Notes: generated from the sequence alone by a model not told the origin. DNA of 64,000 nt from a bacterium (GCA_963631395.1 CAVGQN010000004.1:3770-67769), one strand, 5' to 3'; shown: positions 1 through 13,805, numbered from the stretch's first letter. A program made the numbers and translations.

Positions 1-417
1 GCCCTTTCGGAAGTTGTTTTCGCAGTCTATTTCGCCCGGGTTGGCTATCTGCATCACGACGATGTCGCGGTTGCACTGCAGGTGGCAGATGCGGTGGGGG
101 AAGACCTTGACCTTGGCTTCGCCCTTGTTGCCGCCTTCTGCACTGCCTTTTGCCGCGCTGCCCTTGCTGCTGCCTTCTGCACTGCCCTTTGCCGCGCTGC
201 CCTTGTTGCTTCCTTTGGCTTCGCTTGCCTTGCCGCCTTCCGCGCTGCCCTTTGCCGCACTGCCTGCCTGCTGCTGCCGGCTTGGGGGAACCAGCTCGTC
301 GAAGGTGACGGAGCCGTCGCTCTCCAGGAGGGCGGCCAGGTGCTGTTGTCTTTGCTCCCAGTCGCAGGTGCAAAGTTCGTAGTGGAATCGGATGTAGTAG
401 GTAGCAAATCGTGCCAT
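1..417 (-). CDS. hypothetical protein, 5' part only (runs off the left edge), with a Lys/Gly/Ser/Ala-rich repeat linker
   Basis: ATG at 417-415 is followed by 139 sense codons open to position 1. It is absent from the ORF track because it is edge-truncated. The N-terminus MARFATYYIRFHYELCTCDWEQRQQHLAALLESDGSVTFDELV looks globular, followed by GSAAKGSAEG-type repeats. Listed ORFs 14-382, 54-407 and 82-441 are other frames of the same DNA repeat. Confidence 0.45.
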   Translation of the reverse strand, partial: MARFATYYIRFHYELCTCDWEQRQQHLAALLESDGSVTFDELVPPSRQQQAGSAAKGSAEGGKASEAKGSNKGSAAKGSAEGSSKGSAAKGSAEGGNKGEAKVKVFPHRICHLQCNRDIVVMQIANPGEIDCENNFRKG

Positions 418-549
418 GTTGCTCTCCAGTCAGTATTTTAGTGGGTCAATATCTGCGGTTTTTATGGGTGATGAGCCGCAAAGTTACTGCTTTTATTCGA
501 TACTCGCAAGAGAATGGCCCGGAAAAATTTGAACCGTTTTCAGATGTCA

Positions 550-587
550 TTGACTTTCACAATCATAAATTTGAACTCGACAGATGT
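550..587. repeat. 38-nt direct repeat, copy 1 (partner 1616-1653)
   Basis: TTGACTTTCACAATCATAAATTTGAACTCGACAGATGT versus TTGACTTCCACAATCATAAACTTGAACTCGATAAATGT (34/38 identical). Confidence 0.8.
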
Positions 588-916
588 CGGAAACCGCCCG
601 ACCTTAGGCTGAACGCTTGAAGTCGGGCGGCCAGGTGCTGTTGTGATGATGGTTGTCGAGTCAAGATTTTCCATTGGATTTATGCAATCCTTGAAACTTA
701 TTGAACAAAAACGCAATGTTTGCGACAAATATTTCATCATTTGTTCTTTATTCTCAAACAATAACCGTATATTTGTGGTCAAATAACAAAGGAAAAATGG
801 CAAATAAAGACCTCAATTGCATGGCGAGACTACGGCCCTGCACGGAGAGATAAAGGGGCTGGACGACTTCGAACTCATTACGTTTTTTAGTAATCAGAAA
901 TCAATCTATTTAGAGT

Positions 917-1543
917 ATGACAAAAAAAGAATCCCTTCAGTCGTTTGAAGAAAAAAAGATACGTTCCGTATGGGACGATAAAGAAGAGAAGTGGTATTTC
1001 TCCGTAGTCGACGTGATTGAGGCCCTAACCGATAGTGCTGACCCCAAGCAGTATCTAAAGAAGATGAAATCGAGAGACCCTGAGTTAGGCAACAACTGGG
1101 GTACAATTTGTACCCTGGTTCAGATGAATGGTGCCGACGGGAAAAAGCGACAATGTATGGCTGCTGACATGAAAGGCATCTTCCGTCTGATACAGTCCAT
1201 TCCCTCGCCCAAGGCAGAGCCATTCAAGCGGTGGATGGCACAAGTCGCAAGCGCTCGCGTGGAGCAAATGCAAGACCCGGAGCTCTCTATCGACCAAGCC
1301 ATTGTCGACTACAAACTTGTGGGCAACTACTCTCCCGACTGGGCTATCGCATTCCAGGAAGGGACGGTGAAGCATGTCTACTTCGTGGCAGAGACCAAAG
1401 GCTCTATGTCGAGCATGGACTTGCGCGACATGGAGAAAGGCAAGATAGCCTGCGCCGAAAAGCTGTTCGAGCAACTCTCCACTGCCAACATTAAGTATGG
1501 CAAGGTGGATAGCTTCGACACATTGATGGATTTAGTGAAATAA
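917..1543 (+). CDS. chimeric protein: truncated Bro-N (antirepressor-type) domain fused to a PD-(D/E)xK restriction-endonuclease (Res-type) C-terminal fragment
   Basis: 208-aa ORF. Residues about 10-125 carry the Bro-N family signature (IRSVWDDKEEKWYFSVVDVIEALT ... IQSIPSPKAEPFKRWMAQVASARVEQMQDPELSIDQAI). Residues about 135-208 (YSPDWAIAF...VYFVAETKGS...LRDMEKGKIACAEKLF) resemble the C-terminal nuclease region of type III/helicase-type Res subunits. Confidence 0.75.
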   Translation: MTKKESLQSFEEKKIRSVWDDKEEKWYFSVVDVIEALTDSADPKQYLKKMKSRDPELGNNWGTICTLVQMNGADGKKRQCMAADMKGIFRLIQSIPSPKAEPFKRWMAQVASARVEQMQDPELSIDQAIVDYKLVGNYSPDWAIAFQEGTVKHVYFVAETKGSMSSMDLRDMEKGKIACAEKLFEQLSTANIKYGKVDSFDTLMDLVK

Positions 1544-1615
1544 TATACATGGACCTATCACGCCACTTTTTATTGCTCTAAGGCAAAGCAAAAACTTTTC
1601 AAATCGACTCGCCCT

Positions 1616-1653
1616 TGACTTCCACAATCATAAACTTGAACTCGATAAATGTT
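1616..1653. repeat. 38-nt direct repeat, copy 2 (partner 550-587)
   Basis: See copy 1. Together they bracket the Bro-N chimera gene. Confidence 0.8.
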
Positions 1654-1655
1654 GA

Positions 1656-2717
1656 TTACGGTTCTGCGACGGGACGGACGGAGAAGCCCTTGTAACGGGA
1701 GAGATCGTACTGGTTGCACTCGCTACTGTCGAAGGTGAGGCTGTACGCGTAGCCGTATTTGGTACCGAGCGAACTGGACCAGTAGTGGCCGTACGAGCCG
1801 TTCTTGTAGAGGCCCCCATCGTCGCGGAAGCCCGAAGCAGGGAGAAAAATTGAATTGCCGTTCGAACCGGTAACTTTGTAACCGTTAACAGAAGAACCAG
1901 AAGAGGTGGACATGCTGGTCCAGGTCCAGGTGGCCCGGCTACGGAGTTCTGCGAACTCAGCCTTGGTTGGCATACGGCAAGAGTCGCCCCAGTTGACATA
2001 GGCGGCATCATCATTCTTATCCAAAACGGTCTTACTATCGGAGGATTTGTACTTATACAGGTTTGAATAGGATGCACCATATTTGTACGAACCCCAATTA
2101 TAATATTTTGTAGGTTTCGTTACGCCCCAAGCATAGTAATTGCCATCGTCAGCAGCAGTCGCTGCACCGATGTTGGTCTCTGCCCAAAGCAGACCGCTCG
2201 GCAAATTGAGGTCGATAAACTTGTGGCCGTTGATAATCTTATAATCCGGACGTGTCTTTGCCGAAACAACGTTGACATAGAATACAGCATTTGCCAACTT
2301 CACATAGGGTCTGAAATAGTAAGTGGTGCCGGAAATCAGGGATTCCAATGTAAACCTATAACTTCCCAAATCCCAACCCAAAAGAAGGCAGTCGTCTTCT
2401 ATCGTAGGAAATGCATTATCCTTTGAGTAGCACACACCCACTTCGGGAGTAACAGAAAGCTCCTTGACGTTTGATTCTGATGACAGCACCACAGTGCAAG
2501 TGACAGTAATAGAATTCGTTGTGGTACTCTCTTTGTAATTGCTTATTGTAAACAGTTTGTCGGCATCGATATTGAACGTGGCATAGTCTACTGATGAAAC
2601 CCAGATGGCATTTATCTTGCCATTATTGCCCACCACAAACATATTCTGTTGGGCATTGGCCAACTGCGTCGACATCAATATGCCGACCAGCGCCATGTAT
2701 AATTTTCTTATTTTCAT
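1656..2717 (-). CDS. secreted FISUMP/DUF1566-like domain protein (paralog 1)
   Basis: 353 aa with signal peptide MKIRKLYMALVGILMSTQLANAQ. The C-terminal half has NGHKFIDLNLPSGLLWAETNIG, YYAWG, WGDSCRMPTKAEFAEL and YWSSS motifs typical of the Fibrobacter-succinogenes-major-paralogous domain. Confidence 0.8.
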   Translation of the reverse strand: MKIRKLYMALVGILMSTQLANAQQNMFVVGNNGKINAIWVSSVDYATFNIDADKLFTISNYKESTTTNSITVTCTVVLSSESNVKELSVTPEVGVCYSKDNAFPTIEDDCLLLGWDLGSYRFTLESLISGTTYYFRPYVKLANAVFYVNVVSAKTRPDYKIINGHKFIDLNLPSGLLWAETNIGAATAADDGNYYAWGVTKPTKYYNWGSYKYGASYSNLYKYKSSDSKTVLDKNDDAAYVNWGDSCRMPTKAEFAELRSRATWTWTSMSTSSGSSVNGYKVTGSNGNSIFLPASGFRDDGGLYKNGSYGHYWSSSLGTKYGYAYSLTFDSSECNQYDLSRYKGFSVRPVAEP

Positions 2718-2806
2718 TGTATATTCCTATTTTTTTCAAAAAAATCGACGTGCCTTCGGTGCATAGTGAAAGAGCGCCTTCGGCGTAAGGTTTCAGAGAT
2801 GCGCAT

Positions 2807-3895
2807 TTAGCGCATCTTAGGGTCTGCGACGGGGCGGACGGTGAGACCAAAGTAACGGTAGTATTTGCTCCGGTAGTGTTTGCTACTGCTGAAGTAGAGG
2901 TAGCACGCGTGGTCGGAGAGGCTGGAATAGAGCGTGCTGGACCAGTAGTTGCCGTCAGAGCCGTGACCGTCGAAGCTCCCATAGTAGCGGCCGCCAGAGG
3001 CTGGAAGTAAGATGAAATTGCCATTCTTGACACTGGTGACTTTGTAACCATGGATGGAAGAACCGTCAGAGGTGGACATGCAGGTCCAGGTCCAGGTGCA
3101 GTTGTCCGAGTTACGGAGTTCTGCGAACTCAGCCTTGGTCGGCATACGGCAAGAGTCGCCCCAGTTGACGCAGGCGGCATCGTCTTCGGGATCAAGAGTG
3201 GTCTTCCCGTCTGAAGAATTGTATTTTGTCAAGTCGGATGAAGATGTGCCATGCTTGTAGGAAGACCAAGAGTAACTTTTTGAAGTCTGAGGTTCTGTCT
3301 CACCCCAAGCATAGTAATTGCCGTCATCAGCAGGTTTCTCTGCACCGATGTTTGTTTTAGCCCACAACAGTCCGCTTGGCAAGCCAAGGTCAACGAACTC
3401 GTGCCCATTGACATAAGTATAAGTCGGCTTCTTCTCAAAAGTTGTTTCACTTTTGACATCACCATAATACACGACACCATTCACCTTGACATACGCGCGA
3501 TAATAGTAGGTGGTACCGGCATCAAGACCGTCTAGATCGTCTATGCAGAAAGAATATCCCGACAACGACGAGCCTAACTCTATTTTGTCGTCAGCTATCG
3601 TTGGATGCTCATTCACGTCAGAGAAGCAGACGCCGACTTCGATGGGTTGCACAAATGATTTGTAATCATTTGACTTGAATGCCACTTTGAACGAGGCAGA
3701 GAACATTTCGTTTGTTATCTCAGTAGCGTCACCATAGGTAAAGACGAAGATGTCATTGTCGAACGTCACCTTATTGGCAGTGTATGCAGCCAAACCGCCC
3801 GACTTCAAGTAAACATAAAGCGTCTGCTGGGCTGCAGCAAACTGCACAGAGAAAAGCACAGTAAGCAGAATGGTGAGAATTTTCTTCATAGTCAT
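2807..3895 (-). CDS. secreted FISUMP/DUF1566-like domain protein (paralog 2)
   Basis: 362 aa with signal peptide MKKILTILLTVLFSVQFAAAQ and the same architecture and motifs as 1656-2717 (NGHEFVDLGLPSGLLWAKTNIG, YYAWG, WGDSCRMPTKAEFAEL, YWSST). Shares a 57-nt near-identical DNA block with paralog 1. Confidence 0.8.
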   Translation of the reverse strand: MTMKKILTILLTVLFSVQFAAAQQTLYVYLKSGGLAAYTANKVTFDNDIFVFTYGDATEITNEMFSASFKVAFKSNDYKSFVQPIEVGVCFSDVNEHPTIADDKIELGSSLSGYSFCIDDLDGLDAGTTYYYRAYVKVNGVVYYGDVKSETTFEKKPTYTYVNGHEFVDLGLPSGLLWAKTNIGAEKPADDGNYYAWGETEPQTSKSYSWSSYKHGTSSSDLTKYNSSDGKTTLDPEDDAACVNWGDSCRMPTKAEFAELRNSDNCTWTWTCMSTSDGSSIHGYKVTSVKNGNFILLPASGGRYYGSFDGHGSDGNYWSSTLYSSLSDHACYLYFSSSKHYRSKYYRYFGLTVRPVADPKMR

Positions 3896-3901
3896 TCCTC
3901 A

Positions 3902-4387
3902 TTATTCCTTCAACAGTTTGAAACTCACACCGCTGCCGGTGCTTACTACATATATTCCGGTTGGTGCACTGCCGAGGTCGACACTGGCGCAACCGGCATT
4001 GTCGGCTTTGGCTTCCCCGACCTTACTGGCGCCGACGGAGAACACGCAGACGTGCTCTGCCGCTTTCAGCCCGCTAACGGTGATTGCGCCATCCTTGTAG
4101 CTGAACACCGGACTGGCGGCTGACTCGGCATTGACTTCCCGGATGCCCGTCTCGAGGTTGTCCTCGAAATAGAACTTTTGCACTTCGTCGAAGGTGTAGC
4201 TGACGGCATCCGATGCAGTCGACGTAACCGTGATGCCGTCAGTCGCGATGGCTATCTCCGGCTTGGAGGCAAAAGTAAAGCTAACCTTTGTCTGATTCTT
4301 GAACAAGATGGTTAGGCCTGATGTTGTCTCTGCCATACAGACAGATGCAGCAGCCAAAAGGAATGTGAAAAGTAATGGCTTTCTCAT
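3902..4387 (-). CDS. small secreted protein with a T9SS-type C-terminal sorting tail
   Basis: 161 aa with signal peptide MRKPLLFTFLLAAASVCMA. The C-terminus ...DLGSAPTGIYVVSTGSGVSFKLLKE resembles Por/T9SS C-terminal domains. It lies 6 nt upstream of paralog 2 on the same strand, with a TAAATTTG -7 box upstream. Confidence 0.6.
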   Translation of the reverse strand: MRKPLLFTFLLAAASVCMAETTSGLTILFKNQTKVSFTFASKPEIAIATDGITVTSTASDAVSYTFDEVQKFYFEDNLETGIREVNAESAASPVFSYKDGAITVSGLKAAEHVCVFSVGASKVGEAKADNAGCASVDLGSAPTGIYVVSTGSGVSFKLLKE

Positions 4388-4415
4388 ACACTTTGCGGAT
4401 TAGATTATTTTGGCA

Positions 4416-4423
4416 CAAATTTA
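4416..4423 (-). promoter_or_regulatory. -7 promoter box for the T9SS-tail/FISUMP gene cluster
   Basis: Minus-strand TAAATTTG, 28 nt upstream of the start at 4387. Confidence 0.45.
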
Positions 4424-4803
4424 CAGATATTAACCATCGATAGCTCAAATATGTCACAATATTTTACTTTCTGGGGGGGGATTTCCGCATGTTTGTGCCC
4501 ATTTTGCAACCAACGAGCCTCTTTTCCTGAGCATTATTGGGCTGTTTCCCTTCGGAACAAAGGGCGACAACAACGTGCGCGGCCACATCGGTGCGGAGAT
4601 GAACAACAAGGCAGAGGCAGTGCTCCTTATCGACACGAATGCCTCCAATCCGGACATCAGCGAGGTAAAGCCGCTCTACAACCGAGGAAAATTTAGCTTA
4701 TTCATTGCCCGTTATTTTTCCCGTTGTTTTGCGCGAAGTGCCATTTTTACCCCATTTCGCGCAAAATAGTGGCGGATTATTTTGCGCGAAACGCTATTTT
4801 TAC

Positions 4804-4811
4804 TACCTTTG
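4804..4811 (+). promoter_or_regulatory. Bacteroidetes -7 promoter box (TAnnTTTG) for the AAA ATPase gene
   Basis: TACCTTTG, 15 nt upstream of ATG 4827. Preceded by TTTTGCGCGAA / TTCGCGCAAAA / TTTTGCGCGAA repeats at 4726-4791. Confidence 0.5.
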
Positions 4812-4826
4812 CAGCAAAATAAGCGA

Positions 4827-6272
4827 ATGAGTATGGCACAGAAAATCATCGGACGCGAAGCGGAAATCAAAGAGCTGCGCGCACTTTACGAAAGCAATAA
4901 GCCCGTGTTTGCCGTAGTCTATGGCAGGCGGCGTGTGGGCAAGACATTCCTGGTGCGCGAACTTTTCGAAGACAAGTTTGCATTCTACCACACAGGTCTG
5001 TCTCCGATAGAGATGTCCGGCGACAGACTTAAAGAACAGCAACTGAGCAATTTCCACTCCAGCCTCATACGCTACGGCAGCCAAAGTTCCGCCGTTCCGC
5101 AAGACTGGTTTGCCGCTTTCGACGCCCTCATCACACTGCTGGAAAGCAAAGGCAAAGACAAGCGGCAGGTGGTGTTCATCGACGAGCTGCCGTGGATGGA
5201 CACGTCACGCTCCGGCTTCATCACGGCCCTCGAACATTTCTGGAACGGCTGGGGAGCAGGACGCACCAACCTGATGCTCGTGGTGTGCGGCTCGGCCACA
5301 TCGTGGGTTTCCGACAAGCTGCTCAACAACAAAGGCGGCCTTTACGACCGCACGACGGACGAAATAAAGCTGCGCCCGTTCACACTTGGCGAATGCGCCA
5401 GGTACTACGAGAGCGAAGGCATCGTAATGTCGCAGTACGACCAGCTGCAATGCTACATGGCAACGGGCGGCATACCTTATTATATAAGCATGCTGCAAAA
5501 GGGGATGAGTCTGGCGCAGAACATCGACCGCATGTTCTTTGCTCCCAACGGCAAACTGGCGCAGGAATTCGAACGCCTCTATTCGTCACTCTTTACGAAT
5601 GCCGACGACTGCAAGAAGATTGTGCGCCTGCTGGCAAAGAGCCGCCAGGGTTACACGCGCAAGGATATCGTAGTCATGACCAAACTGCCCGACGGAGGCG
5701 GCATGAGCGCCACGCTGAAAGCCCTGGAGGTGAGCGACTTCATCACCTCGTACACGAAATACGGCTATCCGCGCCGCGAAACCTACTACAGGCTGACTGA
5801 TTTCTACAGTAAGTTCTACCTCTCCTTCATCGACGGCAGGCGCACGGCCAACGCGACTTTCTGGCAAGACAACATAGGCACGCCCGAACTTACGGCATGG
5901 CGGGGCTTCACGTTCGAAGCGCTCTGCTTCTACCATCTGCCGCAAATAAAGCAGGCGCTTGGCATCAGTGGCGTGCAGACCGAGGCAAGCCCGTGGAAAA
6001 GCCGCAAGGAGAAAGATGGAGCTCAGATTGACATGGTGATAGACCGCGCCGACCGAATCATCAACATCTGCGAAATGAAGTTCTCTGACGACGACTTCTG
6101 CATAAACGCCTCAACCGACAAGTCACTGCGCCATAAGCTCTCCACCTTTGCCGAGGAAACCCGAACAAAGTCTTCGCTGCACCTCACCCTCGTCACGACC
6201 TACGGACTGAAGCCCAACGAATACTCCAGCCGTGTGCAGAACGTCATCACCATGGCCGATTTGTTCAGATAA
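4827..6272 (+). CDS. AAA+ ATP-binding protein (archaeal-ATPase-type domain plus DUF234)
   Basis: IGREAEIKELRALYESNKPVFAVVYGRRRVGKTFLVRELF (Walker A), VVFIDELPWM (Walker B) and a C-terminal DUF234-like region. The start is moved to the ATG at 4827 (MSMAQKIIGRE), 15 nt after a TACCTTTG box. Confidence 0.85.
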   Translation: MSMAQKIIGREAEIKELRALYESNKPVFAVVYGRRRVGKTFLVRELFEDKFAFYHTGLSPIEMSGDRLKEQQLSNFHSSLIRYGSQSSAVPQDWFAAFDALITLLESKGKDKRQVVFIDELPWMDTSRSGFITALEHFWNGWGAGRTNLMLVVCGSATSWVSDKLLNNKGGLYDRTTDEIKLRPFTLGECARYYESEGIVMSQYDQLQCYMATGGIPYYISMLQKGMSLAQNIDRMFFAPNGKLAQEFERLYSSLFTNADDCKKIVRLLAKSRQGYTRKDIVVMTKLPDGGGMSATLKALEVSDFITSYTKYGYPRRETYYRLTDFYSKFYLSFIDGRRTANATFWQDNIGTPELTAWRGFTFEALCFYHLPQIKQALGISGVQTEASPWKSRKEKDGAQIDMVIDRADRIINICEMKFSDDDFCINASTDKSLRHKLSTFAEETRTKSSLHLTLVTTYGLKPNEYSSRVQNVITMADLFR

Positions 6273-6444
6273 GGCAATTTCTTAGCCCAAAACTTTGCCC
6301 GAGACTTTGCCCGAGACTTTGCCCGAGACTTTGCCCGAGACTTTGCCCGAAAAAAGTCTTGTCGTTATCGGAAATCTTCTTCTTGCCATTAACGACGTAA
6401 CCGCCGATTGGGCGGTAAAAGTGCTGGAGATATCCGTATTTTGA
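6265..6444 (-). pseudogene. decayed fragment of a T9SS C-terminal tail / downstream-gene junction (paralogous to 11095-11230)
   Basis: No start codon. The open frame reads SKYGYLQHFYRPIGGYVVNGKKKISDNDKTFFGQSLGQSLGQSLGQSLGQSFGLRNCLI*. Compare the intact junction ...GIYIVNGKKKVIR* / MERRKLSDNNKTFLGQSLEQSFGKSF at 11167-11192. By-eye alignment gives roughly 85% DNA identity over about 95 nt. Confidence 0.5.
6292..6351. repeat. 12-bp tandem repeat, about 5 copies
   Basis: ACTTTGCCCGAG x4 plus a partial fifth copy. Encodes GQSL repeats in the decayed minus-strand frame. Confidence 0.9.
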
Positions 6445-6494
6445 TTATTATTCATAGCAAAATGACGGTGTGCATATTCGGTTTACAAGAAATT

Positions 6495-6514
6495 AATTGG
6501 CAAATTTGCCAATT
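6495..6514. promoter_or_regulatory. perfect 20-bp palindrome, candidate operator of the XRE-HNH operon
   Basis: AATTGGCAAATTTGCCAATT ends 15 nt upstream of the TACCTTTG box at 6530-6537. Confidence 0.5.
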
Positions 6515-6529
6515 TAAAAAATAAAGCTC

Positions 6530-6537
6530 TACCTTTG
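6530..6537 (+). promoter_or_regulatory. -7 promoter box for the XRE-HNH operon
   Basis: TACCTTTG, 80 nt upstream of ATG 6618. Confidence 0.5.
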
Positions 6538-6617
6538 TGCCAGATTCCAATATGTGGCGACAACACATTAAATACGGCTGGGATTATTAATGTTTTTAAT
6601 AATTAAAGAACACAATT

Positions 6618-7106
6618 ATGGAACCCAAAACAAAAGTAAGGTGGGTGGATGACAAGCGTCTCTATGTGGATACTCCGCAGGGAGACGAATTTATCATCGG
6701 CTTCCCAGACTCAATCCCCTTTAAGTGTCAGCAACAGGCACCGTGGTTTGAGGTAGACAAAATCGTTGCGACCCTATTTGACCAATACTACAAAGGGGAT
6801 GCAAGTGTTATTATGGGAGAAATCAGCAGACAGCTGTTGATTCAACGTGTCGGGTCAATCTTCTCTTATCATGCCTACGACAAAGAGTCGGTTTCGAAGG
6901 AACGTGTCCGCCTTGGGCAACGTATCCGTCAACTCCGTGAGTCTAAAGGCATGGATGCGAAGCATCTTGCATTTTATGCAGGTATAGATGCCGCCAATCT
7001 TTGCCGCATCGAGGCTGGCAAGTATTCTGTCGGATTTGACATACTTACCAAGATCGGCTATGCATTGGGTATGGAACTGGATTTTGTCGAACCTCAACAA
7101 CATTGA
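6618..7106 (+). CDS. XRE-family helix-turn-helix protein with an unknown N-terminal domain of about 100 aa
   Basis: 162 aa. The C-terminus LGQRIRQLRESKGMDAKHLAFYAGIDAANLCRIEAGKYSVGFDILTKIGYALGMELDF is a classic HTH_3/XRE motif. The N-terminal part is not recognised. Confidence 0.8.
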   Translation: MEPKTKVRWVDDKRLYVDTPQGDEFIIGFPDSIPFKCQQQAPWFEVDKIVATLFDQYYKGDASVIMGEISRQLLIQRVGSIFSYHAYDKESVSKERVRLGQRIRQLRESKGMDAKHLAFYAGIDAANLCRIEAGKYSVGFDILTKIGYALGMELDFVEPQQH

Positions 7107-7110
7107 TGCC

Positions 7111-8550
7111 ATGGTGAATATAGATGAATATACTCGCGAGGTAACTTGTGAGTACAAGGGTGAATTGTATTCTGTTCGTGACAACGGAGCAGTCTTAAGA
7201 CATGCCCGGGAGGGAAAGCCGACAAGACCGTTGGACAATAAATGGACATTCGGCAGGAAGAACGAGAAAGGCTATATGATGATAAGCAATCATAGAGTTC
7301 ATATCATCGTAGCAACAGCTTTTGTGCCCGGCAGAAAAGAGGACAAGGTGGTAGACCATATTGACACAAACCGCTGTAATAATAGGGTGGAAAATCTGAG
7401 GTGGTTGACACCTTTGGAAAATGTTCTTCTCAACGAAGTGACTCTAAAGAGAGTGACCTATCTTTGTGGAGGCGATATCAAAAAGTTTATCGAAAATCCT
7501 TCTTGTCTGCAAGATTTGACTGGTAAAAACCAGGATATCATGTGGATGAGAACGGTGACTGCCGAGGAAGCCAGACTTACTTGGGAACGCATATCACAGT
7601 GGGCAAGAAGACCGATTTCGGCATATCAACTACCACTGCCAAAAGTGCCAACCAAAAGTTTTGAAGAGTGGTTAGGTAATCATGACATCAAGGAGGTGCA
7701 ATCAAATACGTCCGAATGTTTTACAAATCCAAAGGTATACGATTTTGAAAAAGAGCAATCTGCTTCAGAGATAATTTCGACAGACCATCTCACTTCACAA
7801 GATGAACAAATAGAAGAGGAAGATGAGTGGGACAAGAAAGAAGTCTTTTTTTATGAGAAGAATGAATCTCTGACTCCTTGTGCACTTCAAAAGCACTTTT
7901 ATGAGAAGATGAGTTTCCCTCTTTGTCCGAATGATACTAATGGAGGTCTTGATGCATATGCTGACAAACTGAGCATAGGAGAGATTGCAGCGCGAACGGA
8001 GCATGGCGAAGAATTTATAATATTGTCATGGGGATGGACACTAAAATTGGATGCCATTCAAGTCGTGATTCAACAAAATGAACTACGATATTACATGTAC
8101 ATTTCTCTTGAAGGTGAAAAGTATTTTCATTTTATTAAATATTATTACGAGGAATCTTGCCGTTTTTGTGGTTCGCAAAACGTGCTTCAGTATGGCGGAA
8201 AAGCATTATGCGATTTCCCTCTTTGTCCAAAAGACGGAAATATAACACTCGAGGAATATGCTGACCTTCTTAAAAAGGATGTAATATTTGAAAAGAATCA
8301 ATATGGCAATTACTGTGTTATAGATCAGGAAATAGTGCGAAATGAAGGAGAAGAACCCTATCTATTGGTTGCACTGAGTGCACCCAATGAAATCAAACCC
8401 TACGGCGATGCTCGTGTCTATGTGAAAAATGGTAAGGTAATCCACAAAATAGAGAAATGTTATTTTGATTATAACACTTTGCAGAGACGATTTTGTGCGA
8501 TACGAGGGCAAGAGTGGACCGGCGAAGATACAATCGATGATTACTGCTAA
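7111..8550 (+). CDS. HNH endonuclease (NUMOD4/HNH_3-like N-terminus) with a long unknown C-terminal region containing a 100-aa internal duplication
   Basis: The ATG at 7111 is 4 nt after the XRE gene stop. HNH motif: VVDHIDTNRCNNRVENLRWLTPLEN. An acidic linker is followed by two modules that each begin FPLCP[NK]D..L[DE][AE]YAD, exactly 300 nt apart. Confidence 0.8.
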   Translation: MVNIDEYTREVTCEYKGELYSVRDNGAVLRHAREGKPTRPLDNKWTFGRKNEKGYMMISNHRVHIIVATAFVPGRKEDKVVDHIDTNRCNNRVENLRWLTPLENVLLNEVTLKRVTYLCGGDIKKFIENPSCLQDLTGKNQDIMWMRTVTAEEARLTWERISQWARRPISAYQLPLPKVPTKSFEEWLGNHDIKEVQSNTSECFTNPKVYDFEKEQSASEIISTDHLTSQDEQIEEEDEWDKKEVFFYEKNESLTPCALQKHFYEKMSFPLCPNDTNGGLDAYADKLSIGEIAARTEHGEEFIILSWGWTLKLDAIQVVIQQNELRYYMYISLEGEKYFHFIKYYYEESCRFCGSQNVLQYGGKALCDFPLCPKDGNITLEEYADLLKKDVIFEKNQYGNYCVIDQEIVRNEGEEPYLLVALSAPNEIKPYGDARVYVKNGKVIHKIEKCYFDYNTLQRRFCAIRGQEWTGEDTIDDYC

Positions 8551-8580
8551 ACAAGTTTGGCCGATTGTTTCCCATCAGCG

Positions 8581-8609
8581 GCAGTTGTCAAAATTTCTTT
8601 GACAACTGC
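8581..8609. terminator. hairpin between convergent HNH and GH106-like genes
   Basis: GCAGTTGTCAAA-atttc-TTTGACAACTGC: perfect 12-bp stem with a 5-nt loop. Confidence 0.55.
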
Positions 8610-8684
8610 TTCTCAGCGTGATACGTTCTCTGCCGACGCAAGGCCGATGCTTCTTATTGGCCTTTGTTTGCCGAACTTTTTCCG

Positions 8685-11192
8685 TCAGAACGACAGAAAC
8701 ATAGATTCTCCGGGCTCGAACGGAAGCAGGACGGCGCCATGGCGGAGGCGGACGGTGCGGGTCTTGCCCGTGGCAGTGCGCAGGACGCGGACGCGGACGG
8801 GCGCGTGGCGAAGGCGGATGACGGCCGTCTGCGGCTGCGGCGAGATGTTGGCGATGAAGAACACGTCGCGCCGGCCTATGCGCTTGTGCGTGTGGACGAA
8901 GGTCGAGTCGGCGCTGAGGGCACTTTGAGAAAGGGCGGAGTCGGCGGCACTTTGCAAGGCGACAGTGTCGCCGGCGGCCGAGACGGTAATGTCACGCACC
9001 ACGTCGCGGCCCGAGGTGAGGATGCTCACGCCGGCAGCCCGCAGCGAGTCGATTTTGGCTTGCGAGGCCGGCGAGACGTAAATGCCATCTTCCACGATCA
9101 GCGCCTTGTAGCGTACGCCGTCGGGGGTGGAGAGACACGGGCCGTCGTCACCGTGGGCGATTTGAATCCGGTTGCGCAAGCCGTCGCCCGTGCAGACGTC
9201 CCAGTCCAGCTGGCCGATGTCGGGGGGCAGACGGTGGGTGAGCGTCTTCATGGGGATTTCGTCGCCCAGGTAGATGAGCGCGTCGGGCGCGGCCTGGCCT
9301 TGCTGCAGCACCTGCATGGAGCGGTTGAGCGCACGCCACACGGGCTTGAGCGCTTCCCACTGCGGGTTGGAGCGGTTGACGGCATACTCGCGTCCGGCCA
9401 CGTAAGGCGCAGTCGGCGCGGCCAGGGGGATGTGAGGCGTGGCACAAACCACGAGTTCCTGGGCACCCATCGAGAAGGCGATGTCGGCCACGCGCTTCAG
9501 CCCGAGCGGCGTGTCACGGTATTCGGCGTCGGTCATGGCTTCGGCCGAGGCAATGGGCTTGCCGTACAGGTGGGCGGCCGACGAGCAGTCCTTGACATCG
9601 TAGGCACCTTGCTGCTGATAGGCCCAGAATTCGCCCTGCGGCTTGTCGACCGAACGCTTGACGCTGATGGCGTCGCCCGTGATGCAGAGCGCATTGCCGA
9701 TGGCCTGGGCCGTGAGCGTCAGTCCGCGGTCGGCGGCCAGCTGGCGGAAAGTGCCGTAGTAGCGTTCGGCCATAAGGTCGCTGATGGTCGTGCGCAGGTC
9801 GCGGAGCACGCGGTGCGTGTCTTGTACTGACCCGACCACACAGCCGGCCAGGGCGGGCAGATAGGGGCGGAGGGAATAGCCGCGGCGAGCCTCAAACTCC
9901 TGGGTCATGAGGGGCGTCCAGTTCTGCGCGCCGGCCTCGTGACTGTCCATGGTCACGCCCGTCACCGGTATGCCTTTCGCCTCGAGGCTGTCGAGGATGG
10001 GCTGCATGTAGTTGCGCCAGTGCAGGGCGGCGGCTTCGGCCGAGAGCTTGTCGCACTCGTAGCCCAGCAGGTTGGCCGGGCCGTGCTTGGTGCGCGCGCC
10101 GGTCAGCACGGCTGCCAGGCGGAGGATGTGCCATTGGCCTTCGGGTGCAGACCATGTGAGCCGGCCGTCACGGATGTAGGCCGAGAGGTCGACAACCTGC
10201 GCCGTGTCGATGACCTCGCCGGGTCCGTAGTCGGGCGTGAGGCTTCCCTCTGTGAAGTCGCTCTGCAGGGCGGCCCATTCCTCCCAGTGGTCGAGTTTGG
10301 CTTCCGGTCCGACGCTCCAGCTGCGCACGGGCGTGCTGCCGTCGGCCGGGAGGATGCGGAAGAACCGCGACGAGTCGGCAGCGAAGGCGTGCGTGCGCCA
10401 CGGCCAGGCGCCCTGACTGCTGTAGAAGTGCTCGAGCCGCACGATGTCGTGCCAGGCGATGCTGTCGTAGCTGCCCTGCAGCGTGCCGGCGTCGGGCAGA
10501 TGGACGAACTTGGCGCCCGAGAACGTGCCCCTGGGACCGGGCATCTGCATGGCGCCGTTGCGGCCTTTGCCGCTGGGCTTGTAGCGGGCCGTGATGTGGC
10601 GGGCCAGGCCGTCAGTGTGGGCGGGGAAAGCCAGGCAGGCGATGTCGGCCACATAGCCGTCCTTGCCCTCGATGCGGGGGAGGGGCAGGCTGAGCCTTTG
10701 TCCGCCGCTGACGACGGTGTCGGCATAGGCTACGCGCTGCATGGCGTGGGTGGGGTCAATCCATCGTCCGCCGGCCACGTAGCCGGGCGAGATGTTGAGC
10801 TCGAAGGTCAGTCCGGCTCCGGTGGCAGCACGCGCCGCTTCCTCCAGGTGCTTCCACCAGGCGGGCGAGAAGCCTGCGTCGGCCTTCGACGCGTCTTTGC
10901 CGTGCGTCTGGTCGTAGTACACCACTCCGCCGAAACCAGCTTCCTTCAGTGCCTTGACGTCGGCGGCAATGCCCTCGCTCGTAGTCGCCTCGTAGCCGAA
11001 GAACCACCACGTCTTCATGCGCGGTTCGCTGTTGCGCCCCGCGGCACTGGCCAGGCCCAGACTGCAGAGCAGGGTGCAGGCCAAAGCCTTTCGGCCGATA
11101 AATTTTCTTTGCCAAAAACTTTTCCCAAAACTTTGCTCGAGACTTTGCCCCAGAAAAGTCTTGTTGTTATCGGATAACTTTCTTCTTTCCAT
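8685..11192 (-). CDS. glycoside hydrolase, GH106-like (putative alpha-L-rhamnosidase-type)
   Basis: 835 aa. The N-terminal region ...KTWWFFGYEATTSEGIAADVKALKEAGFGGVVYYDQ resembles the GH106 family N-terminal signature, and there is a signal-like stretch ALACTLLCSLGLASAAG. The only in-frame ATG upstream of the signal peptide is 11192, which overlaps the preceding gene by 26 nt. The family call is from memory of motifs. Confidence 0.6.
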   Translation of the reverse strand: MERRKLSDNNKTFLGQSLEQSFGKSFWQRKFIGRKALACTLLCSLGLASAAGRNSEPRMKTWWFFGYEATTSEGIAADVKALKEAGFGGVVYYDQTHGKDASKADAGFSPAWWKHLEEAARAATGAGLTFELNISPGYVAGGRWIDPTHAMQRVAYADTVVSGGQRLSLPLPRIEGKDGYVADIACLAFPAHTDGLARHITARYKPSGKGRNGAMQMPGPRGTFSGAKFVHLPDAGTLQGSYDSIAWHDIVRLEHFYSSQGAWPWRTHAFAADSSRFFRILPADGSTPVRSWSVGPEAKLDHWEEWAALQSDFTEGSLTPDYGPGEVIDTAQVVDLSAYIRDGRLTWSAPEGQWHILRLAAVLTGARTKHGPANLLGYECDKLSAEAAALHWRNYMQPILDSLEAKGIPVTGVTMDSHEAGAQNWTPLMTQEFEARRGYSLRPYLPALAGCVVGSVQDTHRVLRDLRTTISDLMAERYYGTFRQLAADRGLTLTAQAIGNALCITGDAISVKRSVDKPQGEFWAYQQQGAYDVKDCSSAAHLYGKPIASAEAMTDAEYRDTPLGLKRVADIAFSMGAQELVVCATPHIPLAAPTAPYVAGREYAVNRSNPQWEALKPVWRALNRSMQVLQQGQAAPDALIYLGDEIPMKTLTHRLPPDIGQLDWDVCTGDGLRNRIQIAHGDDGPCLSTPDGVRYKALIVEDGIYVSPASQAKIDSLRAAGVSILTSGRDVVRDITVSAAGDTVALQSAADSALSQSALSADSTFVHTHKRIGRRDVFFIANISPQPQTAVIRLRHAPVRVRVLRTATGKTRTVRLRHGAVLLPFEPGESMFLSF

Positions 11193-13611
11193 TGACGATG
11201 TAGATGCCCGGACGGAGTTGGCCGGAGGGGTTGCAGGGACGGCCCATCAGGTCGTAGACGGTGACGGGGGCCGAGTCCGTATCCGCGGCGATTTTCTCCA
11301 GGCCCGTGCTGCCCGGCGAGCCGGCATAGATGCGCACGGTGGTCAGATTGTCCACGCCCGAGGCAGTGCCCATGAGCACGTAGTCGCTGCCCTGCCGGTA
11401 GTAGACCCTGGCGTAGCAGTGCGTGCCCGACGCGGCCGGACGGAACGTGTCGTTGGCCTTCACGAGGGTGCCGCTCAGCGTGTAGGTGCCGGCAGCACCG
11501 GCAGGCAGGGCGGCATTGGCCGTCATGGTGGCGACGGGTGCCGTGGAGGTAGCGGTCTTGAAGAACTGCACTTGCAGCTGCCCGCTGTAGCGGCCCGACG
11601 TGTTGGAGAGCGCAACGTCGAACGAAGCCGCGCTGCCCACAAAGAGCGAATCGCCGTAGGCGGCATCGGCCTTCAGTGCCGGCTTGGCTGTCAGCACGAG
11701 GTTGGACGAGAGCGTCTGGTCGCCGACGACGGTGACGGTGGGCAGGCTGCCGCCGACCTCAGTCATCTCGCTCGACGAGAAGTCGGAGGGCCAGAAGTAG
11801 AGGTCCATGGCGCGCTGTCCGGCTTCGCTGAACGTGACACCGAAGGTCACCGTGGCCGACGAAAGCGCAGGGATGGTGACGATGTCCGACTGCGCCCAGC
11901 AGGTGTCGCCGGCGGAAAGAGCCAGCACGTAGCGGCCGCAGCAGGTGGCGTCGTTGCCGTTGGTGATGCGGCACGTGATGGTCTGCTCGCTGCCCGTGCG
12001 GAGCGTGTCGGTGCCGAAGTTCCAGTCGGAGGCCGTGAGCGTCAGGTCGGCCGACGGGAGGGTGAAGTAGGCCACGGAGTGGGAGACGGAGCACTGCCAG
12101 CAGGCCGGCCGGTTGGCGTTGCTGCGCACGAAGCCTATGCTGTCTTTGTTCGTGCCTTGATATTCCCTGGTCATCAGATAGACCTCGTACGAGCCGCTCT
12201 CGAGCGAACGCGGAATTTTGACGGGCAACTTCCATGAGGTATAGTAGCCGTTGGGGACGGACAGGGTGTCGCTGTACATGGCGACGGCCTTGGTCTTGCC
12301 GTCACGGACGAAGGCGAGGCCGAAGTAGCCGACAAACGGCTCGTCCATGAAGTGGAAGATGTTGTTGACCTCGATCAGCGCATTTTCGCCCAATTTGATT
12401 GAAGGCTGCGAGATGGTGCAGGCCGTTGTGCCCTTGGAATTGACGGGCGTGTAGTAGCGGCCTCCCGTCAGACGGCCGGCAGGGGCGAGCTGCACCAGGG
12501 CCATCTGGTCGTCGCAGAACTTGAAGGTCATGGGGTTGAGGACGGCGATGTCGTAGTAGCCGTCGTACGTGCCGTACCAGCCCCAGTTGGCATGATAGAG
12601 GCCCGAGGCGTCGATGCCGTCGAGGATGAAGCAGTGGCCGCCCATGGTGTCGTCGTTGCCGCCATAGATGACGGGCCGGCTGTTGGCCAGCTCGTTGCGC
12701 AGAATGGTCTGCCACTCGTCGTAGGTGTACTGCGAGCGGCACAGTGCCTGCACCAGGCCGTCGTAGCCGAAGTGCCTCTTCACGGCCGTGTGGATGAAGC
12801 TCAGGGCCGACGACGAAGCGTCTTTGCCGTATTGCATGCTGACGGCCACGCCGGCTTGGTAACTGAGTTTGGCCACCTCGTTGAGCTGCGCCGGCGAGTA
12901 GTCGGTGTTCGGGTCATACTGGTCGAACATCAGCGAGTAGTCGTAGGTCTGCTGGCTGAAGTTGAGCGTGACCGACGGTGCGTACGTTCCGCCCTCGTAG
13001 GTCTTGCTGCCCGTGCCACGGGTCGGATACCGGTAGAAGTAGAGGCACTGCGCCAGGGCTGTCGCCACGCAACCCGTCACGCAGCGCGTGTCGCCGACCG
13101 AGGGGCAGAGGCGGTTGAAGGGCGTGCCTTGTCCCCAGGCGATGTCGCCCAGAAGCGGTGCAATCGGCGTGACCGTCGCATCGGCCGCTGCAGTGGCCAG
13201 GGTCACCTCGGGGTGGCTCTCCAGGTAGGCTGCTGCCTGGCCGATGTTCTCGAGCCAGTGCTGGAAGCCTACGGGCATCAGCTCGGCATTGTAGGTGCCG
13301 CTGGGGCTGTAACCAATCACGGGGCGCATCCGGTCCGTGCCGCTCACCACGGCAAAGCCGTCGCCCTGGCTGTCGCTGAATATGTAGTAGGGGACGAGCG
13401 TGCTGCCGGCTGTGGCGCTATCGGCTGACAAAGACCTTGCGGCAGGGGCAAGGGCCGGGGCTTCGGCCACGACGGGGTCACCGAGCAGGCCCTGGGCTAT
13501 CTGGCGGGCGTCGGCCAAGCTGCGCTGGTCGGCATACGCACTGCTTCCACCTGCCGTGAGGAGAAGGAGGGCGGCAGTGACTTTGACGATGCGGGTTCTT
13601 CTATCGTTCAT
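11167..13611 (-). CDS. C10-family (streptopain/interpain-like) cysteine peptidase with Ig-like repeats and a T9SS C-terminal sorting domain
   Basis: GQGTPFNRLCP...CVTGCVATALAQCLYFYRYP (catalytic Cys region) and GGHCFILDGIDASGLYHANWGWYGTYDGYYD (His/Trp region) align to SpeB-type motifs. The C-terminus ...GIYIVNGKKKVIR is a T9SS tail. The start is set at MNDRRTRIVKVTAALLLLTAGGSSAYA (13611). Confidence 0.85.
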   Translation of the reverse strand: MNDRRTRIVKVTAALLLLTAGGSSAYADQRSLADARQIAQGLLGDPVVAEAPALAPAARSLSADSATAGSTLVPYYIFSDSQGDGFAVVSGTDRMRPVIGYSPSGTYNAELMPVGFQHWLENIGQAAAYLESHPEVTLATAAADATVTPIAPLLGDIAWGQGTPFNRLCPSVGDTRCVTGCVATALAQCLYFYRYPTRGTGSKTYEGGTYAPSVTLNFSQQTYDYSLMFDQYDPNTDYSPAQLNEVAKLSYQAGVAVSMQYGKDASSSALSFIHTAVKRHFGYDGLVQALCRSQYTYDEWQTILRNELANSRPVIYGGNDDTMGGHCFILDGIDASGLYHANWGWYGTYDGYYDIAVLNPMTFKFCDDQMALVQLAPAGRLTGGRYYTPVNSKGTTACTISQPSIKLGENALIEVNNIFHFMDEPFVGYFGLAFVRDGKTKAVAMYSDTLSVPNGYYTSWKLPVKIPRSLESGSYEVYLMTREYQGTNKDSIGFVRSNANRPACWQCSVSHSVAYFTLPSADLTLTASDWNFGTDTLRTGSEQTITCRITNGNDATCCGRYVLALSAGDTCWAQSDIVTIPALSSATVTFGVTFSEAGQRAMDLYFWPSDFSSSEMTEVGGSLPTVTVVGDQTLSSNLVLTAKPALKADAAYGDSLFVGSAASFDVALSNTSGRYSGQLQVQFFKTATSTAPVATMTANAALPAGAAGTYTLSGTLVKANDTFRPAASGTHCYARVYYRQGSDYVLMGTASGVDNLTTVRIYAGSPGSTGLEKIAADTDSAPVTVYDLMGRPCNPSGQLRPGIYIVNGKKKVIR

Positions 13612-13620
13612 CAGGATTGT

Positions 13621-13805
13621 TATTTCTTTCATCAAGACTCTTCTCGCTTTCATTAAGGGTTGTTCTTTATCTTTTATCAAGACCTTTGCCCTTCATCAAG
13701 CTTCTCTTGCTTTTATCAAGACTCATCAAGTCTCGCTTTCATCAAGCTTCCTCTTGCTTTTGTCAAGATTCATCAAGTCTCGCTTTCATTAAGGGTTGTT
13801 CTTTT
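13621..13805. repeat. composite repeat array in the C10 peptidase 5' leader
   Basis: Unit of about 48 bp x2 (13692-13739 and 13740-13787). Perfect 27-bp direct repeat TCTCGCTTTCATTAAGGGTTGTTCTTT at 13642-13668 and 13778-13804. TCATCAAG occurs many times. Confidence 0.85.

Follow-up and report, generated by a model that had tools for sequence, protein, structure and literature searches.

The DNA examined in this work is a stretch of 64,000 nucleotides from a bacterium (GCA_963631395.1, CAVGQN010000004.1:3770-67769), referred to hereafter as the window, and our analysis is centred on a two-gene cassette at positions 6495-8609, in which a gene for an XRE-family helix-turn-helix (HTH) regulator is followed by a gene for a long HNH nuclease. 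This XRE-HNH pair is a conserved mobile unit across the Bacteroidota, and its regulator family, together with the operator and leader of its control region, is also found ahead of unrelated nucleases. We give about an even chance to the reading that the cassette is an autorepressed, nuclease-swappable conflict or defence module carried on mobile accessory DNA. The combination of a regulator and a nuclease effector is a known kind of system; what appear to be undescribed are the XRE family with its N-terminal domain (N-domain), the operator-leader signature, the duplicated C-terminal module of the nuclease and the many-to-many swapping of partners across the Bacteroidota. No paper on XRE-HNH pairing was found in our literature searches. 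An earlier reading of the window, made by a model from the sequence alone and referred to here as the sequence-only reading, had proposed a candidate two-gene defence or addiction module at this place.

The cassette proper (6495-8550) has a GC content of 41.1%, and the somewhat longer segment 6273-8610 has 41.4%, with 46.8% for the XRE gene and 40.1% for the HNH gene. The flanking genes are far richer in GC, with 66.2% in the GH106 gene (8685-11192, minus strand) and 63.4% in the C10 peptidase gene. The value of about 38% given by the sequence-only reading was slightly low, but the contrast with the flanks that it described is real. The two genes are separated by 4 nt (XRE stop codon at 7104-7106, HNH ATG at 7111), exactly as had been stated. 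Judged by these characteristics, the cassette is an operon of two genes, acquired horizontally, that has a promoter and a putative operator of its own. At its right end, a putative terminator hairpin with a perfect 12-bp stem (8581-8609, plus strand) can be read from the sequence at the place where the earlier reading had set the boundary, and the 41-nt stretch which holds it (8575-8615) folds with a dG of -19 kcal/mol. This hairpin is probably the terminator of the operon. A consensus-based scan for intrinsic terminators did not call it, as there is no T-run after the stem, and it is not kept in the other cassettes, which have hairpins of their own.

The first gene (6618-7106, plus strand) encodes a regulator of 162 aa, consisting of an N-domain (residues 1-95) and an XRE-type HTH (residues 98-156). 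Only the HTH is recognised by Pfam, PADLOC, PHROG and NCBIfam. Its Pfam matches (HTH_31 and HTH_3) lie just under the gathering thresholds, the PADLOC models matched are Control_protein (3e-9) and HTH_VI (1.6e-9), the PHROG matches are transcriptional regulators, and sub-threshold matches of the NCBIfam type are to HipB-partner and MqsA-family HTH domains. An AlphaFold (AF2) model of the protein based upon 40 homologues has a pLDDT of 91, and its comparison with the PDB by Foldseek retrieved ClgR, C.AhdI, C.BclI, HipB and HigA2, all by way of the HTH half only (for C.AhdI, E 6e-4 with 35% identity). The N-domain is predicted to consist of three strands, three helices and one further strand. 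No match for it was obtained in Pfam, PADLOC, PHROG or NCBIfam, or by Foldseek of the whole XRE model against the PDB, in agreement with the previous description of gene 1 as an unrecognised N-domain of about 100 aa joined to an XRE HTH.

The second gene (7111-8550, plus strand) encodes an HNH nuclease of 479 aa. An in-frame extension of this open reading frame (ORF) back to 6988 was considered and rejected, since the homologues all start at the methionine of an MV(D/N)I motif. HNH_3 matches residues 62-105 with 47.6 bits against a gathering cutoff of 24.8 (E 1.3e-12), phrog_59 matches residues 15-105 (E 2.6e-18) and the generic PADLOC model HEase is matched with an E of 7e-12. When a profile of 38 homologues was compared with the PDB sequences, the sole match was I-HmuI (1u3e; E 1.3e-7), whose residues D74, H75 and N96 align with D82, H83 and N104 of the window's protein. 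Of these I-HmuI residues, the Asp-His pair reportedly serves in catalysis and the Asn in metal binding. As D82, H83 and N104 are invariant in the 38 homologues, the enzyme is probably active and would nick or cut DNA. No signal peptide was found in the HNH protein. The catalytic HNH_3/NUMOD4-like domain with a conserved helical extension occupies 7153-7620 (plus strand; residues ~15-170, delimited by conservation), and it is followed by a variable acidic linker (7612-7809, plus strand; residues 168-233), which is predicted to be disordered (AF2 pLDDT <50) and varies in both length and sequence across the homologue alignment. The mean identity to full-length homologues is 78% in the catalytic part, 21% in the linker and 44-52% in the C-terminal modules that come after it. 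In a Foldseek comparison with BFVD, phage HNH homing endonucleases matched the catalytic N-terminus only (~110 columns).

The C-terminal half of the nuclease consists of two related modules, one with an FPLCP motif (7861-8160, plus strand; residues ~251-350) and a second with an FPLCP motif and a conserved C-terminal DDYC (8161-8547, plus strand; residues ~351-479). In the AF2 model, residues 250-470 have a pLDDT >90 and form two beta-rich modules, of which module 1 is predicted to be a helix followed by a five-strand beta-meander. The claim that an acidic linker is followed by two copies of an unrecognised module of about 100 aa is upheld by profile-profile comparison of the sub-alignments with hhalign (98.5% probability, E 3e-15, 92 columns) and also by BLASTP of one half against the other, in which 38 residues aligned with 39% identity (E 7e-7); a BLAST of the whole protein against itself gave the identity hit only, and the comparison of segment with segment was needed to detect the duplication. 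The profile of the modules had no match in Pfam or the PDB sequences, Foldseek of the whole HNH model against the PDB found no fold for them at E<=0.001 (low-probability noise only), and beyond residue ~110 the protein has no Pfam, NCBIfam or PHROG match above cutoff. An NCBIfam YacL match to the C-terminal part (E 0.004) was far under its cutoff and was dismissed. The module was likewise without a match in 50,697 phage genomes. A scan of 1.84 billion representative proteins yielded 201 clusters with the module, which is always C-terminal; in all nine tested proteins of 385-585 aa it is preceded by HNH_3, whereas among 11 tested shorter proteins (166-300 aa) HNH_3 is partly kept in three, and the other eight gave no Pfam match. 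These short proteins without HNH_3 may be either fragments or stand-alone forms. The HNH family also includes a short form of ~335 aa with one module, corresponding to copy 2 only. A hypothetical protein of 137 aa on an Agrobacterium plasmid (NZ_CP110834.1, 36628-37041; locus L269) shows 24-25% identity to module 2, and the same weak likeness was seen on three other Rhizobiaceae plasmids (E 4e-5 to 7e-4 over the set). By this likeness, the module may also exist outside the Bacteroidota without an HNH domain. The label "sensor-like", which had been attached to the repeats, is speculative, and recognition of a DNA target is an equally possible function.

Both elements of the control region that had been described, a promoter box of the operon's own and a perfect 20-bp palindrome upstream of it, are present. 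The palindrome (AATTGGCAAATTTGCCAATT, 6495-6514) is a putative XRE operator by its sequence and conservation; it occurs a single time in the window, where 0.01 occurrences are expected by chance. The -7 promoter box TACCTTTG (6530-6537, plus strand), of the form TAnnTTTG, was read from the sequence and stands at the same place in related cassettes. The operator palindrome ATTGGCAAATTTGCCAAT overlaps the -33 promoter element, as its right half holds the sequence TTTG (6505-6508), from which there are 21 nt to the -7 box. TAnnTTTG is the consensus -7 box of Bacteroides and Bacteroidota promoters, and a gap of 21 nt is the usual spacing of the Bacteroides -33 and -7 elements. A sigma-70 promoter scan was uninformative, its model being unsuited to a Bacteroidota promoter. 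A further conserved element, which we refer to as the leader (6552-6577, plus strand; recognised from sequence and conservation), is situated after the -7 box and ahead of the start codon. It consists of an inverted repeat, ATGTG-GCGACAA-CACAT, followed by AAATACGG; its core GTGGCGACAACAC lies at 6554-6566, the motif as a whole is GTGGCGACAACAC...AAATNCGG, and it occurs once in the window.

The palindrome, in the form ATTGG(C/T)(A/T)(A/T)ATTTGCCAAT, is kept in >60 distinct cassettes with all types of nuclease and also on a Chryseobacterium plasmid, and operator, -7 box and leader are all constant over these >60 cassettes, whose flanks are unrelated. The leader, with the consensus NN-GTGGCG(A/G/T)CAACAC-N'N' then AAAT-N-CGG shortly before the start codon, is present between -7 box and start codon in every cassette of the XRE family, with nucleases of the HNH, CoiA-like and Endonuclease_NS types alike (examples are L001, L012, L015, L018, L024 and L268, with ~60 other loci). 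Where XRE and HNH genes are divergently arranged, the leader precedes the nuclease gene, and the intergenic region holds related half-sites AATTTACAAAT. The leader motif was not found in cassettes that have a different regulator. The pair flanking GTG...CAC covaries (AU 16, UA 16, GU 3, UG 3, CG 2, unpaired 6), to an extent above all 500 shuffles in a set of sequences that are kin to one another. No Rfam match was obtained for the leader or for anything else in 6200-8800. From its form and conservation, the leader may act as a short hairpin in the RNA or, on the DNA, as a second site or operator.

Full-length HNH homologues with 50-57% identity are common in Bacteroidales metagenomes and metagenome-assembled genomes. 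The XRE gene is found 4-8 nt upstream of the HNH gene in every close relative examined, and these XRE homologues, directly upstream of the HNH homologues, are 75-81% identical and thus better conserved than the nuclease. The family extends over Prevotella/Segatella (including the cultured Segatella baroniae), Bacteroides/Bacteroidaceae, Muribaculaceae, Paludibacteraceae, Alistipes, Chryseobacterium and others. On a plasmid of Chryseobacterium oryzae ADR-1 (NZ_CP094531.1), a 164-aa XRE protein, which is 37% identical over both domains, is encoded 5 nt upstream of a 396-aa HNH protein, and the palindrome CAATTGGCATATTTGCCAATTG and the leader are the same. Members of the family are also present on ~10 IMG/VR contigs, seven of them with the XRE partner, and one of these copies has UmuDC and a large primase as its neighbours on a contig that looks like an integrative and conjugative element (ICE) or a prophage. 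In an alignment of five loci with unrelated flanks (SurA, CysS, GH38 and SusD contexts), the likeness begins at the palindrome and stops at the HNH stop codon; the sharpness of this boundary is partly due to a loss of signal in non-coding DNA, the coding parts being ~55% diverged. Within each cassette type the likeness between loci is limited to the cassette, and one lineage with identical HNH proteins shares more, namely ~380 nt upstream and >1.5 kb downstream. Neither an integrase nor terminal repeats belong to the cassettes in the loci compared. At one locus (L091, 3402-6001), an XRE-HNH pair is followed by a second operator, leader and XRE gene in the manner of tandem cassettes, and the modules can therefore be arrayed.

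Copies of the cassette are repeatedly inactivated, as expected for a costly gene. In a sister strain (L105; ENA ERZ27279232 k141_166509), the cassette occupies the corresponding position, after a GH106 gene of 94% identity, and its HNH gene has an in-frame deletion of 378 nt (relative to window 7230-7608), by which residues ~41-168, and with them the whole catalytic domain, are gone. In this strain, a Gp49 + HTH (HigBA-like) pair is inserted between the HNH and GH106 genes; a segment of ~38 bp (relative to window 8684-8721) is present on each side of the insertion. Several metagenome copies of the cassette are truncated. At two loci (L155 and L156), unrelated DNA, adjoining the end of a transposase-like ORF, stands in place of the promoter, the leader and the first 88 codons of the XRE gene, and the HNH ORF of 490 aa is intact; this replacement is probably silencing by an IS-type insertion. 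The N-terminally truncated XRE genes of L155, L156 and L181 were considered as proof that the N-domain is dispensable, and this was rejected because the insertions or deletions removed the promoter too. A 97-aa XRE call in L005 was also set aside as a probable start artefact of the gene caller, since the alignment continues in frame from a ATGGAACCC start without gap or stop; an XRE ORF of 162 aa is found in L026, which, by an identical promoter-leader stretch, is apparently of the same lineage.

In a survey of the XRE family covering 80 metagenome loci, of which 75 were evaluable (the set was not de-replicated), the gene directly after the XRE gene encodes a member of the HNH family in 54 loci, a CoiA-like protein in 11, an Endonuclease_NS protein in one, and small or unknown ORFs in the remaining nine. 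The co-occurrence of XRE and HNH genes, which the sequence-only reading had asked to be checked across Bacteroidales, thus holds in all close relatives and in 54/75 of these loci. The XRE homologues that precede the CoiA-like nucleases are ~55% identical, N-domain included, and their partners carry a CoiA_N zinc ribbon with a PD-(D/E)xK-like motif; the Endonuclease_NS gene follows a 41% identical XRE homologue in a Ferruginibacter-like contig. Across the nuclease types, the HTH remains 61-68% identical, and the identity of the N-domain falls to 21-44%. The constancy of the HTH matches that of the operator. The drift of the N-domain is also compatible with partner-specific adaptation, and this point is not settled. 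At one locus (L142), the N-domain is 78-81% identical to those of the HNH-type XRE proteins, yet the gene downstream encodes a CoiA-like nuclease; as nearly the same N-domain also serves this unrelated fold, a protein inhibitor specific for one nuclease is unlikely. These sequence comparisons indicate that the XRE protein is more likely to be a transcriptional controller than a nuclease-specific antitoxin, in which case its N-domain would serve in oligomerisation, signal sensing or recognition of the leader.

The reading of the cassette as an autorepressed conflict or defence module with exchangeable nucleases is supported by the conserved synteny and control region, the swapping of nucleases, the constancy of the HTH, its structural closeness to restriction-modification controller proteins, ClgR and the HipB/HigA antitoxins, the active site, the decay of copies, the foreign GC content and the defence- or mobile-type neighbours at various loci. 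In the mechanism that we propose, the XRE protein, probably as a dimer, would bind the 20-bp palindrome with its -33 element, by which the bicistronic transcript would be autorepressed, and the leader at the 5' end of the transcript would form a second layer of control. The HNH protein, whose I-HmuI-type His-Me finger is intact by its conserved residues, would nick or cut DNA, and its fast-evolving duplicated C-terminal modules would, speculatively, choose the DNA or the signal that is acted upon. In this manner the module would keep a potentially self-damaging DNase silent until it is needed. Because the same regulator family, operator and leader stand before unrelated nucleases, we regard the module as regulator-centred and effector-swappable, with a logic that resembles, by analogy, that of C-protein-controlled restriction enzymes and of repressor-gated defence or abortive-infection effectors. 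A more far-reaching version of this reading, which we put forward only tentatively and consider on balance doubtful, is that these cassettes are Bacteroidota-wide inducible modules of immunity, or of conflict with mobile genetic elements, in which a sensor-repressor XRE and the leader gate interchangeable DNases; the regulator, the leader or the two together would detect infection or the entry of DNA, upon which the released nuclease would destroy the invading (or all) DNA. In E. coli, the anti-phage activity of a protein with a CoiA domain has been validated by experiment (Vassallo et al., 2022; PMC9519451). Our system resembles the latter in having a CoiA-type nuclease among the effectors behind the XRE family, but the Bacteroidota CoiA-like proteins have no PADLOC match, the window carries the HNH variant, and the E. 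coli system, in the parts of that publication consulted, is a single gene for which no XRE partner is described.

A number of observations weigh against a role in conflict or defence. No system-specific model of PADLOC-DB 2.0.0 matches the XRE or HNH protein, for which generic HTH models and HEase, respectively, were the only matches, and the CoiA-like, Endonuclease_NS, HTH-N and other partners have no PADLOC match, so that the check for a defence system did not come out in favour of the earlier proposal. The nuclease core falls within the homing-endonuclease group of His-Me fingers. The Endonuclease_NS partner has a hydrophobic, signal-like N-terminal segment, which fits a secreted nuclease better than an intracellular effector. 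In the L009/L028 lineage, the HNH gene is intact behind an XRE gene that lacks its start codon and first 30 codons, and the nuclease may therefore not be strongly toxic; as to whether the N-domain is dispensable, this lineage is ambiguous. In a reverse survey of 80 GTDB loci with HNH-family genes, an XRE of the window's type is present in only 21 loci; in a further 14 the partner is a different protein of ~200 aa, made up of an HTH at the N-terminus and an unknown C-domain (five of the 14 also encode a small secreted protein between regulator and nuclease), seven have a lipoprotein-like gene directly upstream, and others have unrelated neighbours. The upstream partners were considered as immunity proteins and this was rejected, a weak Imm53 match (E 0.006) being under the cutoff. 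It follows from these loci that the nuclease is usually accompanied by a DNA-binding partner, and that the window's XRE characterises its own clade and not the family at large. As regards the defence-island setting, some loci do have neighbours of toxin-antitoxin (TA) or defence type, but many cassettes stand alone between housekeeping genes and not in defence islands. Of the earlier proposal of a defence or addiction module, the two-gene operon, the co-occurrence of its genes and the novel repeats have stood, whereas a match to a defence system was not obtained and the idea of a nuclease-specific antitoxin is weakened.

The main rival, which we think rather unlikely, holds that the cassette is a selfish, free-standing endonuclease of the homing type with its own regulator, in which the C-terminal modules recognise the cut site, and which would spread by repair-mediated copying without benefit to the host. 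The I-HmuI-type HNH homing endonucleases (HNH_3, PF13392) belong to group 2 of the His-Me fingers (Jablonska et al., 2017; PMC5714182). The window's protein shares with them the N-terminal beta-strands and His-Me finger, with aligned D-H...N...N catalytic residues, and a modular build of catalytic N-terminus and separate C-terminal domain, and its BFVD matches are phage HNH homing endonucleases. A homing enzyme would also agree with cassettes that lack an integrase or terminal repeats, occur in many contexts and have homology limited to themselves, with a catalytic domain that is better conserved than the putative specificity domain, with a frequent degeneration that fits the life cycle of such enzymes, and with copies on IMG/VR or ICE-like contigs. 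However, no common target gene or site can be recognised among the insertion contexts, and, unlike I-HmuI-type enzymes, the gene is found outside introns, inteins and phage genomes, shares a transcript with the gene of a dedicated XRE regulator, and has as its C-terminal domain an undescribed, duplicated beta-rich module instead of a NUMOD, IENR or AP2 domain. The two computational findings that, according to the sequence-only reading, would have refuted its proposal, namely HNH homologues mainly in phage genes or introns as homing enzymes lacking the XRE partner, and C-terminal modules matching homing DNA-binding domains, were not obtained; the module was absent from the 50,697 phage genomes and matched no NUMOD, IENR or HTH domain of homing endonucleases. 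The same XRE family, with operator and leader, also serves nucleases that have no part in homing, namely the CoiA-like and Endonuclease_NS enzymes. Improbable, too, is the alternative of a classical type II TA or addiction system, in which the XRE N-domain would neutralise the HNH DNase in an MqsA-like architecture and the complex would autorepress. The pair is like HipBA, HigBA and MqsRA in being a bicistronic operon with the putative antitoxin first and a 4-nt gap, for which autoregulation may be supposed, in the joining of an HTH to an extra domain of ~95 aa, in its HipB and HigA structural neighbours and sub-threshold HipB-partner and MqsA-family HTH matches, in many-to-many partner swapping as in TA families, and in its occurrence on a plasmid and other mobile DNA; the N-domain also diverges more than the HTH between nuclease types. 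Nevertheless, the L142 N-domain stands beside an unrelated CoiA-like fold, and essentially the same XRE before a different nuclease fold argues against specific neutralisation at the protein level. Moreover, the lineage with the N-terminally deleted XRE keeps its HNH intact, divergent XRE/HNH arrangements occur, and the toxin, a multi-domain DNase of 479 aa, would be unusually large.

We consider it similarly improbable that the cassette is a solitary restriction endonuclease controlled by a C-protein, either modification-dependent (Type IV-like) or with a methyltransferase encoded elsewhere, whose duplicated C-terminal modules would read DNA modification or a target sequence. As in operons of the C.AhdI, C.BclI and C.PvuII type, an XRE-HTH gene directly precedes a nuclease gene in a common transcript, at a gap of a few nt, with a palindromic, putative operator at its own promoter; the closest HTH structures are those of C.AhdI and C.BclI, the PADLOC Control_protein model points the same way, and in one short-form locus a Dam-like methyltransferase stands beside the divergent XRE. 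A D12-class methyltransferase was seen nearby only in L021-L023, and no methyltransferase was found among the ORFs of window positions 1-13680, of L001-L013 and L024, or of the Chryseobacterium plasmid locus, so that in the window and most loci there is none in or next to the cassette. C-proteins, further, do not have the N-domain of 95 aa, and C-protein restriction-modification operons differ from our cassette in the conserved leader and in the exchange of an HNH_3-type nuclease for CoiA-like and Endonuclease_NS nucleases; HNH_3 is not a typical restriction-enzyme subfamily, and by Foldseek the C-terminal modules are unlike SRA, PUA, EVE and other modified-base readers in the PDB. Least probable of all, in our estimation, is a physiological nuclease under XRE control, serving in DNA uptake or processing or in the scavenging of extracellular DNA, and mobile by chance. 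The CoiA-like partners, which are of a competence-protein family, and the Endonuclease_NS partner with its signal-like N-terminus would suit such a function, but the patchy, strain-variable distribution, the foreign composition and the frequent decay do not, and a signal peptide is absent from the HNH protein. Genes for competence or uptake were not linked to the cassette at the relatives' loci examined.

The interest of a module of this type lies partly in its hosts, as gut Bacteroidota, in which the cassette is widespread, are under-represented among the defence and conflict systems that have been validated experimentally. The XRE N-domain and the duplicated nuclease module are two domains with confident predicted folds and without known relatives, and the XRE-operator-leader signature provides a handle by which further nuclease effectors can be found through guilt by association. 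Cultured carriers, namely Segatella baroniae and, with its plasmid, Chryseobacterium oryzae, make the hypothesis testable. Even a cassette that is only a selfish nuclease gene would show I-HmuI-type enzymes in a new chromosomal lifestyle and with a new specificity domain.

Within the window, the cassette belongs to a mosaic island of 40-55% GC at ~400-8600. The left flank of the cassette (6281-6420) was identified by sequence comparison as the relic of a gene junction and lies outside the module; positions 6281-6400 are ~80-87% identical to 11107-11230, that is, to the junction of the GH106 5' end with the C10 peptidase 3' end, which bears out the earlier view of the left boundary as a decayed gene-junction fragment. 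The relic consists of the T9SS-type C-terminus of the upstream gene and the GH106 5' end, placed between the DUF234 ATPase gene and the cassette, and within it a 12-nt tandem unit (CTTTGCCCGAGA) is expanded to ~five copies. Judged by this identity, the relic junction is the mark of a rearrangement or insertion boundary, and it suggests either a past duplication or recombination with a related genome at a hotspot.

The nuclease fragment, Bro-N domain and DUF234 ATPase that had been noted in the vicinity were all recovered by profile searches. An ORF of 208 aa (917-1543) combines a Bro-N domain (E 1.8e-11) with the C-terminal part of RE_endonuc (PF19778; E 3e-16), and the DUF234/ATPase_2 gene (4782-6272) matches the PADLOC single-gene candidate PDC-S27 with an E of 2.7e-199. 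By its GC content of 54.7%, the DUF234 gene is apparently an acquisition separate from the XRE-HNH cassette; on its upstream side (4724-4821) there are a 45-nt direct repeat and perfect 14-nt inverted repeats (TTTCGCGCAAAATA / TATTTTGCGCGAAA). Between these ORFs lie two tandem paralogous genes for proteins of 353 and 362 aa (1656-2717 and 2807-3895, minus strand), which have 73-84% nucleotide identity in blocks; their products have signal-peptide-like N-termini and no Pfam match. The Bro-N of the window ORF is homologous to a Bro-N protein at one of the GTDB loci (L064), where it is encoded just upstream of a lipoprotein gene and a short-form HNH gene, and Bro-N matches are present elsewhere in loci L066 and L079. 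Neighbours of the cassette at other loci include HepT/MNT, HigBA-like, Schlafen/AlbA_2 ATPase, IS21, integrase, UmuDC-primase, D12 methyltransferase and AAA_14/DUF4143 genes; the 405 neighbouring ORFs that were extracted group into 297 clusters. At the left edge of the window, degenerate repeats of ~39 nt are present at 113-264 within a GC-rich stretch.

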